DNA of 26,928 bases. Source: Candidatus Baldrarchaeum yapensis (GTDB lineage: Archaea; Asgardarchaeota; Baldrarchaeia; Baldrarchaeales; Baldrarchaeaceae). Shown piece after piece: positions 15,664 to 16,707 of this stretch (its first letter is position 1; the number at the start of each line of letters is the position of its first letter). The translations under genes and the position numbers were made by a program. Under the pieces are notes generated by a model, which searched no databases, was not told the origin of the DNA, and saw only the letters and a list, made by a program, of their open reading frames with translations. The stretch spans positions 1 to 26,928 of the forward strand of contig JAEOSH010000025.1 of assembly GCA_016840465.1 (NCBI GenBank). The letters are read 5' to 3'.

Positions 15664-16707
15664 ATGAGGTTCTTCGTGACAACATCCCTAGGGTTTGGAG
15701 GATCACTTAAGGATCTGGAGCGCGTGTTAAGCGCACTTGAGAAAAGGAATTTGGAGTTTCTCGTGGATAAAGATGTTGCTCGACATCTTGGGAGGGATGG
15801 CGTGGACATTCATGACGCCGATGTTGACATGATCTTATCGATAGGCGGAGACGGGACCCTCCTCGAAACTCTCATCAAAATGAGAGATAGGCAGATACCA
15901 ATTCTTGGAATAAAAGGGTCCGGAAATCTCGGTTTCCTCACAGAGGTAAGCATTTTGAATTTTGACATAGCATTGGATAAACTGCTGAATGGAGAATGGT
16001 GGATTGAGAGAAGAACCCGACTCGATGCCGTTGCAAACAATGAATCTTGCCCTCCAGCACTCAACGAGGTTGCAATATTCGCGAAGCGCAGCGCAACCAT
16101 GATCAGATACTCCCTAAGAATAAATGACGAGCTCATATGGAGAGATGGAGCGGACGGGGTTCTTGTGGCAACACCGACGGGAAGCACCGCATATGCGATG
16201 AGTGCGGGTGGCCCTGTTGTTGCATATGATGCAAGAGTCTTCGTAATAGTTCCGGTTAATAGCATAAATCAGGCGAGAAGGCCATTTGTCATACCTGACT
16301 CTGTTGTCATAACGGTCGAGGATATAGAAAGTCCGGTGAGTTGCGAAGTGATCATAGATGGAAGGTACAGGGTTCCAATAGAGGACAATTTTGTCCAGAT
16401 AAGGAAGTCGAAGCACGACGCTCTTTTTGTGAGATTGACAAAGAAGAAGTTCTCATTTTTAAGCGAGAGGCTTGGCAAGAAGGCACAAATCTATGAGGAT
16501 ATTGAGAACATACCACCCAGCTCGAAATTCATCCTCAAGATTTTGGAGTATGAAGGACCACTTACGCAGAAGCAGATCGTGGAGAAGACAATGTTGCCGC
16601 CCCGCACTGTAAGGTACGCGCTCAATATACTGCTCGAGAAAGGATTAATAGTCAAAAAGGCGAGCCTGAGGGATACACGACAGTACGTGTATTCCCTTGC
16701 ATTTTAG
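15664..16707 (+). CDS. nadK: NAD(+) kinase with an in-frame C-terminal winged helix-turn-helix domain
   Basis: GGDGT, LNE and ADGVLVATPTGSTAYAMSAGGP are intact. Residues ~283-347 (IPPSSKFILKILEYEGPLTQKQIVEKTMLPPRTVRYALNILLEKGLIVKKASLRDTRQYVYSL) match the archaeal MarR/ArsR-like wHTH pattern. Confidence 0.9.
   Translation: MRFFVTTSLGFGGSLKDLERVLSALEKRNLEFLVDKDVARHLGRDGVDIHDADVDMILSIGGDGTLLETLIKMRDRQIPILGIKGSGNLGFLTEVSILNFDIALDKLLNGEWWIERRTRLDAVANNESCPPALNEVAIFAKRSATMIRYSLRINDELIWRDGADGVLVATPTGSTAYAMSAGGPVVAYDARVFVIVPVNSINQARRPFVIPDSVVITVEDIESPVSCEVIIDGRYRVPIEDNFVQIRKSKHDALFVRLTKKKFSFLSERLGKKAQIYEDIENIPPSSKFILKILEYEGPLTQKQIVEKTMLPPRTVRYALNILLEKGLIVKKASLRDTRQYVYSLAF

Follow-up and report, generated by a model that had tools for sequence, protein, structure and literature searches.

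The enterobacterial regulator NadR joins a helix-turn-helix (HTH) domain to nicotinamide mononucleotide adenylyltransferase and ribosylnicotinamide kinase domains, and controls NAD genes including nadA. NrtR, which is Nudix-related, and NiaR are further bacterial NAD regulators, with palindromes situated before nadA, nadB and nadC (PMC2330246, PMC2330245); in the NrtR paper the word 'archaea' occurs only in the reference list. Among archaea, the closest described system serves a different cofactor: RbkR is a riboflavin kinase carrying a MarR-type winged helix-turn-helix (wHTH) that has been shown experimentally to be bifunctional, its operators precede the TATA boxes of pathway genes by a few nucleotides – an arrangement read as activation, with release by the pathway product – and the fusion is the sole enzyme orthologue in most of the genomes studied (Rodionova et al. 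2017, PMC5397151). Here we describe a protein of related design encoded in a 26,928-nucleotide stretch of the Asgard archaeon Candidatus Baldrarchaeum yapensis (contig JAEOSH010000025.1, positions 1 to 26,928; hereafter the window), in which a NAD kinase (NadK) is fused to a C-terminal wHTH. We propose, at a probability of roughly 0.6, that this fusion may be a bifunctional 'trigger enzyme', a NAD kinase that would also regulate nadA in the manner of RbkR, and that the family to which it belongs probably controls this NAD-synthesis gene.

A NAD kinase fused in frame to a winged helix-turn-helix

The original prediction for this locus was of a complete NadK, with GGDGT, NE and TPTGSTAY motifs intact, that continues without a stop through a basic linker into a wHTH of about 65 amino acids (aa), and the analysis bears this out in each part. 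The open reading frame (ORF) listing and translation give a single 347-aa ORF running from the kinase into the C-terminal domain, with the three motifs at the positions listed in Table 1, and the span assigned to the wHTH, 16510-16707, is an exact match for residues 283-347 together with the stop codon. Pfam matches above the gathering cut-offs cover both kinase domains (NAD_kinase, residues 37-111, 58.5 bits; NAD_kinase_C, 133-258, 95.4 bits) and, at the C-terminus, MarR (289-340, 29.8 against a cut-off of 24.6), MarR_2 (283-340) and HTH_24 (290-329). The best NCBIfam model is the archaeal NAD kinase PRK03708, aligned to residues 14-272 with a score of 216.9 against an equivalog cut-off of 326; since the equivalog scores fall below their cut-offs, the fusion does not qualify as an equivalog of any curated subgroup of NadKs. 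It nonetheless has the two-domain fold together with the GGDG, second glycine-rich, NE/ND and TPTGSTAY-type motifs by which a NAD kinase is recognized. The second glycine-rich motif, GIKGSGNLGFL, aligns to GIN-TGRVGLL of the Archaeoglobus fulgidus NadK, with a lysine replacing the asparagine of many NadKs and one residue extra; its place in the Thor-type fusions is taken by PxASKGQPDFL.

An AlphaFold2 model built with a 61-sequence family alignment has a mean predicted local distance difference test score (pLDDT) of 91.8 for the whole protein. Its C-terminal part, between residues 285 and 345, is assigned by DSSP to helices 285-297, 302-309 and 313-325 followed by strands 329-333 and 341-345, the helix-helix-helix-strand-strand order of a textbook winged helix. 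When the whole model is compared with solved structures using Foldseek, the only matches are NadKs, over about 280 columns and with none reaching the wHTH (template modeling (TM) scores of 0.81-0.85 normalized to the target, root-mean-square deviation 2.5-3.5 Å); the solved prokaryotic NadKs are 249-307 aa long, in keeping with the statement in the original prediction that typical NadKs end without a DNA-binding domain. The wHTH modeled on its own (pLDDT 92.4) matches MarR-family winged helices, including the DNA complexes of HpaR, MepR, MftR and MarR, at TM scores of 0.80-0.86, and in a profile alignment the RD-x-R of the fusion wing pairs with the D-x-R wing of MarR proteins.

MarR proteins are about 140-150 aa long and dimerize through N- and C-terminal helices that flank the wHTH. 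The fusion has the three helices and the two-strand wing with its D-x-R signature, and the dimerization helices are without a counterpart, such that only about 65 residues match and the target-normalized TM score is 0.35-0.48. With those helices absent, it is properly described as carrying a MarR-type domain and not as a MarR-family protein.

An archaeal family with a conserved winged helix and a degenerating kinase loop

Beyond the original prediction lie the existence of a large family of such fusions, the loss of GGDG from most of its members, and a probable target, nadA, that is located elsewhere and not among the neighboring genes. A sequence search recovered more than 100 clusters of proteins of about 330-360 aa with the same architecture, with 40-54% identity to the query over 95-100% of its length; their source names are NAD kinase, MarR regulator or wHTH regulator, and they derive from six archaeal lineages (Thorarchaeota, Promethearchaeota, Bathyarchaeota, Nitrososphaerales, Diapherotrites and Micrarchaeota). 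Several clusters in the ESM Atlas (612, 352, 126 and 119 members, and smaller ones) consist of archaeal proteins only, some of them carrying NAD_kinase_C plus an HTH family. A profile of the wHTH alone matches 747 clusters (at 50% identity) with E-values up to 1e-10, of which the top 150 are either C-terminal domains of proteins of about 320-360 aa or small proteins of 72-126 aa; the view that this wHTH type also occurs as a small stand-alone protein is thereby upheld.

One such protein is encoded in the genome that carries the window (G000; 2.27 Mb in 100 contigs, 96% complete). This 83-aa paralogue (L002:1468-1719, minus strand, contig C84) is 40% identical to residues 261-345 of the fusion, has the same PRTVRxAL helix and D-x-RQ wing, and adjoins an aRF1-like gene; a comparable open frame, also of about 83 aa, occurs in a relative, G002. 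The paralogue might recognize the same operators as the fusion.

In a tree of the kinase domain only, from a quick search, 67 fusions group as a single clade to the exclusion of 19 stand-alone NadKs (Shimodaira-Hasegawa-like approximate likelihood ratio test support 99), which supports a single origin of the fusion, and the window protein lies within this clade as sister to the fusions of its order-level relatives (support 93). A contig scan with the family alignment was dominated by bacterial NadKs matching the TPTGSTAY pattern and gave four fusion loci, so loci were taken by genome search instead. Among 332 genomes of the phylum – which includes the Thorarchaeota-type genomes, and within which G000 belongs to a small class – full-length fusions are present in six family-level groups, and in most of these genomes a separate NadK is found as well, its alignment extending over about 260-275 residues.

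The two halves of the protein have fared differently. Variation across 121 family proteins is close to nil in the recognition helix (LPxRTVRxAL...GL[IV]) and in the wing (L-R-D-x-R-Q..Y), and the NE/ND and TPTGSTAY motifs are retained. GGDGT, however, is kept in only five of the 121, the window protein included, and is intact in none of the 41 fusions read from the genome loci of other genomes; most members have degenerate versions such as GSDRF, GSDRT, GDDST and GESPT. The wHTH is the best-conserved region of the family, with 60 fusion wHTH segments being 49-62% identical to the query and whole proteins 38-53%.

A conserved palindrome pair upstream of nadA

The fusion gene lies head-to-head with nadA in 24 distinct loci, 22 from many genera of one family-level group (f7) and two from the closest relatives of G000. 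In an unbiased count of all 5-N(0-7)-5 palindromes across the nadA-fusion spacers, GGCAA-N3-TTGCC is found in 20 of the 24, with the next commonest palindrome in five, and the remaining four loci have a sequence one base off. Its position is nearly fixed, at 80-90 nucleotides (nt) from an anchor in the nadA N-terminus. A second site, recognizable by its GGCAA half, lies nearer to nadA by 29 nt in 21 of the 22 f7 loci and by 30 nt in the other one and in the two closest relatives; the mean matrix score at this -29 offset is +5.3, compared with -29.9 +/- 5.1 at other offsets. Thirteen nucleotides beyond site 2 is a conserved TTTTAA, which in the direction of nadA reads as a TATA-like TTAAAA and, wherever it was located, precedes the nadA ATG by roughly 35-40 nt. 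Both sites are thus upstream of the TATA-like box of nadA.

In G000 the family's head-to-head arrangement is absent, the fusion gene being unlinked from nadA, which forms an operon with genes for aspartate dehydrogenase and nadC on contig C35. The region upstream of this nadA can be aligned to the spacers between nadA and the fusion gene in the closest relatives, and retains the TATA-like box and a homologue of the operator pair. Site 1 is GGCAA-TTT-TTTCC (C35:21189-21201), where the closest relatives have GGCAA-AAA-TTTCC, and site 2, GGTAAGACTTGTG, is 31 nt closer to nadA and scores -0.6. Only 32 sites in 2.27 Mb score at least as well as site 1, such that the chance of encountering one in a 300-nt spacer is about 0.004. 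Homology to the relatives stops right after site 1, at the start of their fusion promoter, a position occupied in G000 by a PIN-domain gene; the segment just past site 1 (L117:2828-3501, contig C35) encodes an 80-aa ORF without a Pfam match as well as the PIN-domain protein. The end of homology at these genes may mark a rearrangement breakpoint.

Intergenic matches to the operator elsewhere in G000 were considered and set aside as not NAD-related: one (C69:6156) lies between two convergent 3' ends, and another (C36:1049) is upstream of an AbrB/PIN pair. On contig C69 (L173:737-1555, plus strand) there is a gene for a 272-aa protein with an N-terminal HTH-like segment and a phosphoribosyltransferase-like motif, and the operator-like CCGCAATTTTTGCC starts directly after its stop codon, between convergent genes; we judge this placement to be chance.

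The fusion as the apparently sole canonical NAD kinase of the genome

Protein and Pfam searches of G000 found no stand-alone NadK, the matches being the fusion and a distant 371-aa paralogue of the NadK superfamily, and in a tblastn search of the genome with six stand-alone Asgard NadKs the fusion was the sole match. All four order-level relatives have a stand-alone NadK, and their fusions read GDDGV at the catalytic loop. The fusion therefore looks like the only ordinary NAD kinase of G000 and, as such, should make the NADP of the cell. The 371-aa paralogue (L004:1483-2598, minus strand, contig C1) has a GGDGT of its own, and we know of no characterized function for it. It is present in 33 of 41 relatives of the phylum, alongside canonical NadKs, and so looks like a protein with a separate function and not a replacement. 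Its gene adjoins others resembling those for the T and H proteins of glycine cleavage.

A proposed mechanism and its alternatives

In the mechanism that we propose, residues 1-272 would constitute a catalytically competent NAD kinase supplying the NADP of the cell, and the same kinase body would provide both oligomerization and a binding site for pyridine nucleotides. The wHTH, lacking the MarR dimerization helices, would be paired by the kinase oligomer and would read a pair of GGCAA-N3-TTGCC-type palindromes spaced by about three helical turns and situated just before the TATA-like box of nadA-aspartate dehydrogenase-nadC. NAD(H) or NADP(H) occupying the kinase site would alter the affinity for DNA, so that de novo NAD synthesis would track the pyridine-nucleotide pool. 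Because both sites are upstream of the nadA TATA-like box, in an RbkR-like geometry, activation with ligand-induced release is slightly favored; repression by blocking TFB is the alternative, and is only a little less probable. The inference in the original prediction that the protein is both enzyme and transcription factor is supported computationally, and independently, for each half.

The distribution of the catalytic loop suggests how the family may have evolved. The ancestor would have been a bifunctional kinase and regulator, and the availability of a second NadK in many lineages would have let the kinase loop decay, leaving a sensor. For the G000 fusion, tree parsimony favors the retention of catalysis; the protein would have become or stayed the sole canonical NadK, with its gene having moved away from the shared nadA promoter and the binding sites having stayed with nadA. 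More tentatively, this family could be the first archaeal transcription-factor system for NAD homeostasis, bifunctional in origin and repeatedly decaying to a pseudo-kinase sensor where a second NadK was available, with G000 preserving or having regained the ancestral state, in which a sole NAD kinase also regulates de novo NAD synthesis; its gene would have left the promoter usually shared with nadA, perhaps because the switch that controls nadA cannot also govern an essential enzyme. We regard this wider scenario as possible, at somewhat below even odds.

Several observations weigh against the bifunctional interpretation. The operator-bearing loci are related, and with 22 of the 24 coming from family f7 they are not independent, as the counts might suggest them to be. 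The G000 sites are imperfect, site 1 having one mismatch (in its TTTCC half) and site 2 being weak, and the three perfect GGCAA-N3-TTGCC sites in this genome (C21:8998, C30:45212 and C56:81094) all fall within coding sequence by rough ORF calls. The 338-bp spacer upstream of the fusion gene contains no family operator, its best matrix score being 0.2 as compared to at least 13 at the nadA sites, and so nothing in the window shows DNA binding. The linker is modeled at low confidence and may be flexible. As for the kinase, the 371-aa paralogue might be an alternative source of NADP, and with the assembly being 96% complete and in 100 contigs a stand-alone nadK could lie in a gap.

The loop itself may also be an imperfect guide. 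In two genomes of family f29 (G260 and G261; L154 and L155; 88% and 91% complete) the only NAD_kinase_C gene is a fusion with a GRDRD loop, and neither a stand-alone NadK nor the 371-aa paralogue was found in them. Either such degenerate loops still catalyze or a gene is missing from these 88-91% complete genomes, and the state of the loop may thus not predict activity in either direction. A rule that an intact GGDG goes with the lack of a stand-alone NadK was considered and not upheld, since these two genomes do not fit it and several other genomes with a single match are 80-90% complete; the sole-kinase argument is consequently applied to G000 only.

The alternative that survives best is that the fusion is only a regulator, its NadK body being a ligand-sensing and oligomerization module and the NADP being derived from the 371-aa paralogue or from an unassembled NadK. 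A sensor role is likely for the GGDG-degenerate members. In favor of this alternative, GGDG is lost in most of the family and the wHTH is nearly invariant, and the closest relatives, with their GDDGV loop, have a separate NadK. For the window protein we nevertheless consider it unlikely, as all of its catalytic motifs are intact, unlike those of 41 of 41 fusions from the loci of other genomes. G000 does encode a second GGDGT protein with NAD_kinase domains, but the coexistence of this paralogue with canonical NadKs in relatives is not what a replacement would be expected to show; likewise, an estimated 4% or so of the genome is absent from the assembly, but tblastn finds no other NadK in what is present.

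That the fusion is instead only an enzyme, with a winged helix that is not sequence-specific and serves in oligomerization, in protein contacts or in non-specific association with the nucleoid, appears improbable. Conservation within the family is highest in the recognition helix and wing, a palindrome pair at fixed position accompanies the gene in 24 loci, a homologue of this operator persists at the nadA of G000, and the closest structures are those of sequence-specific MarR regulators on DNA. These considerations outweigh the facts that winged helices can have protein-protein roles and that the G000 fusion gene lacks its own operator and does not adjoin NAD-synthesis genes.

Finally, the possibility that faulty assembly or sequencing merged nadK with a neighboring small wHTH gene can be dismissed as far as contigs can show, even with small stand-alone proteins of the same wHTH type in existence, one of them in G000, because the junction is reproduced without an indel in contigs of two other metagenome runs and hundreds of orthologues from many assemblies have the same architecture. 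The single contigs in question, from runs X4 and X5 (not source-flagged), cover positions 15300-17000 with three substitutions and no indels; by codon reading, the only substitution within the gene, 16095 A>G, is at the third position of an alanine codon.

Runs X4 and X6 also contain a second and more abundant contig (depth 118-178) that matches only positions 16536-16577 (42 nt), with four differences. Its flank encodes the PPSAKL motif of the family, which indicates another organism with a related gene in the same samples.

Coordinates and neighboring genes

The coordinates of the fusion gene and its parts are collected in Table 1.

Table 1. Features of the fusion gene and of its upstream spacer, in window positions.
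Feature	Coordinates	Strand	Basis or remark
nadK-wHTH gene, complete	15664..16707	+	347 codons plus stop; contigs of runs X4 and X5 span it without an indel
NAD kinase body, residues 1-272, both NadK domains	15664..16479	+	Pfam, NCBIfam, Foldseek
GGDGT catalytic loop, residues 61-65, intact	15844..15858	+	
Second glycine-rich motif GIKGSGNLGFL, residues 82-92	15907..15939	+	
NE motif, residues 134-135	16063..16068	+	N134 invariant in the family alignment
TPTGSTAY motif, residues 170-177	16171..16194	+	P171 and G173 invariant
Basic linker helix, residues 265-282	16456..16509	+	AlphaFold2 helix 265-281, pLDDT about 54
MarR-type winged helix-turn-helix, residues 283-347	16510..16704	+	Pfam, domain-only model, Foldseek
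Predicted recognition helix, residues 313-325, includes RTVRYAL	16600..16638	+	DSSP; R314 and T315 invariant, R317 nearly so
Beta wing, residues 329-345, L-R-D-x-R-Q signature	16648..16698	+	Strands 329-333 and 341-345; R339 invariant, R336 and D337 nearly so
338-bp spacer upstream of the fusion, common to the divergent NfnA-like gene; without family operator	15326..15663	.	Operator matrix

Divergent from the fusion gene, at 13078-15325 on the minus strand, are genes for an NfnB/GltD-like protein (Fer4_20 plus Pyr_redox_2, 464 aa) and an NfnA/PyrK-like protein (DHODB_Fe-S_bind, 286 aa), which overlap by 8 nt. This pair would form an NADP(H)-linked oxidoreductase, such that the NAD kinase gene now adjoins a user of its product. 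On the other side, a HAD-family hydrolase gene (16704-17399, minus strand, 231 aa) converges on the fusion gene and overlaps its stop codon by 4 nt; a connection of this hydrolase to the dephosphorylation of NADP is only a thought.

Two inverted repeats in the spacer, TCTTACC-N3-GGTAAGA at 15477-15493 and AAATCTC/GAGATTT at 15514-15527, were tried as family operators and rejected, each scoring at most 0.2 and having no second perfect copy in the genome; the half-sites of the former are everted relative to GG(C/T)AA-N3-TT(G/A)CC. A 14-mer common to the regions upstream of nadA and of the fusion, TGCA[AC]AA.TCTTACC, was not used, as it was noticed post hoc and, by a rough estimate, about one such match is expected by chance between two 300-nt regions. 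A plus-strand frame at 15497-15595 that reads CPYC...C, resembling a zinc ribbon, has in the ORF listing no ATG, GTG or TTG start that would yield at least 20 aa.

Significance and comparison with known systems

Literature searches found no description of a fusion between a NAD kinase and a DNA-binding domain, or of an archaeal NAD regulator. The regulation of NAD synthesis in archaea thus appears to be undescribed, with NadR, NiaR and NrtR all coming from bacteria, and the same apparently holds for the widespread NadK-wHTH family, the members of which automatic annotation already labels NAD kinase or MarR regulator. The family is abundant across archaeal phyla – Asgard archaea, Nitrososphaerota and DPANN-type lineages – and now has a candidate operator (a GGCAA-N3-TTGCC pair at a spacing of 29 nt) and a candidate target in nadA, so that a single protein and a short stretch of DNA would suffice for a direct test. 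It may also offer a natural series leading from a bifunctional enzyme to a pseudo-enzyme sensor, in which the window protein would be a rare member where, to judge from its sequence, both functions should persist in one polypeptide.

The nearest comparisons are with other members of the same clade, the GGDG-degenerate NadK-wHTH proteins encoded beside nadA in Thorarchaeota and others, with which the window protein shares the near-invariant helix and wing and the operator type. It differs from them in its intact loop, in being unlinked from nadA and without an operator of its own, and in having no stand-alone NadK to accompany it. Its kinase half resembles the Archaeoglobus fulgidus NadK (PDB 1suw, 1z0s) in fold and motifs (phmmer E-value about 5e-28 over residues 53-263; Foldseek target-normalized TM score 0.85); such stand-alone NadKs, however, have no DNA-binding domain, and the fusions form a clade separate from them.

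Among NAD regulators, NadR is similar in uniting an enzyme of the NAD pathway with a DNA-binding domain that acts on NAD biosynthesis genes, but it is bacterial, has its HTH at the N-terminus and is built from unrelated enzyme domains, and Pfam and NCBIfam scans of the fusion detected no relation to it. NrtR and NiaR likewise combine an enzyme-like or ligand-binding effector domain with a winged helix, and NrtR is also an instance of degeneration from enzyme to sensor; their effector folds are, however, the Nudix and 3H domains, and both systems were reconstructed in bacteria.

The closest parallel is with RbkR, which also combines a kinase of a cofactor pathway with a MarR-type winged helix in archaea according to the logic of a trigger enzyme. 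In both cases operators are conserved upstream of pathway genes – here a pair, in the 24 loci and in G000 – and the fusion takes the place of a separate enzyme, being the sole canonical NadK found in G000. The differences are that the enzyme has the two-domain NadK fold and not that of a CTP-dependent RibK, that the wHTH is C-terminal here and N-terminal in RbkR, that the candidate operator and regulon concern nadA and not riboflavin genes, and that bifunctionality is predicted here and experimental for RbkR. Most NadK-wHTH relatives have moreover lost the catalytic loop, a loss not reported for RbkR (PMC5397151). The fusion has neither the RibK domain nor the N-terminal wHTH that would make it a homologue of RbkR, and the resemblance is one of functional analogy. 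With an enzyme part not homologous to that of any of them, it would stand with RbkR, NadR and BirA in kind, as an enzyme that doubles as a regulator.

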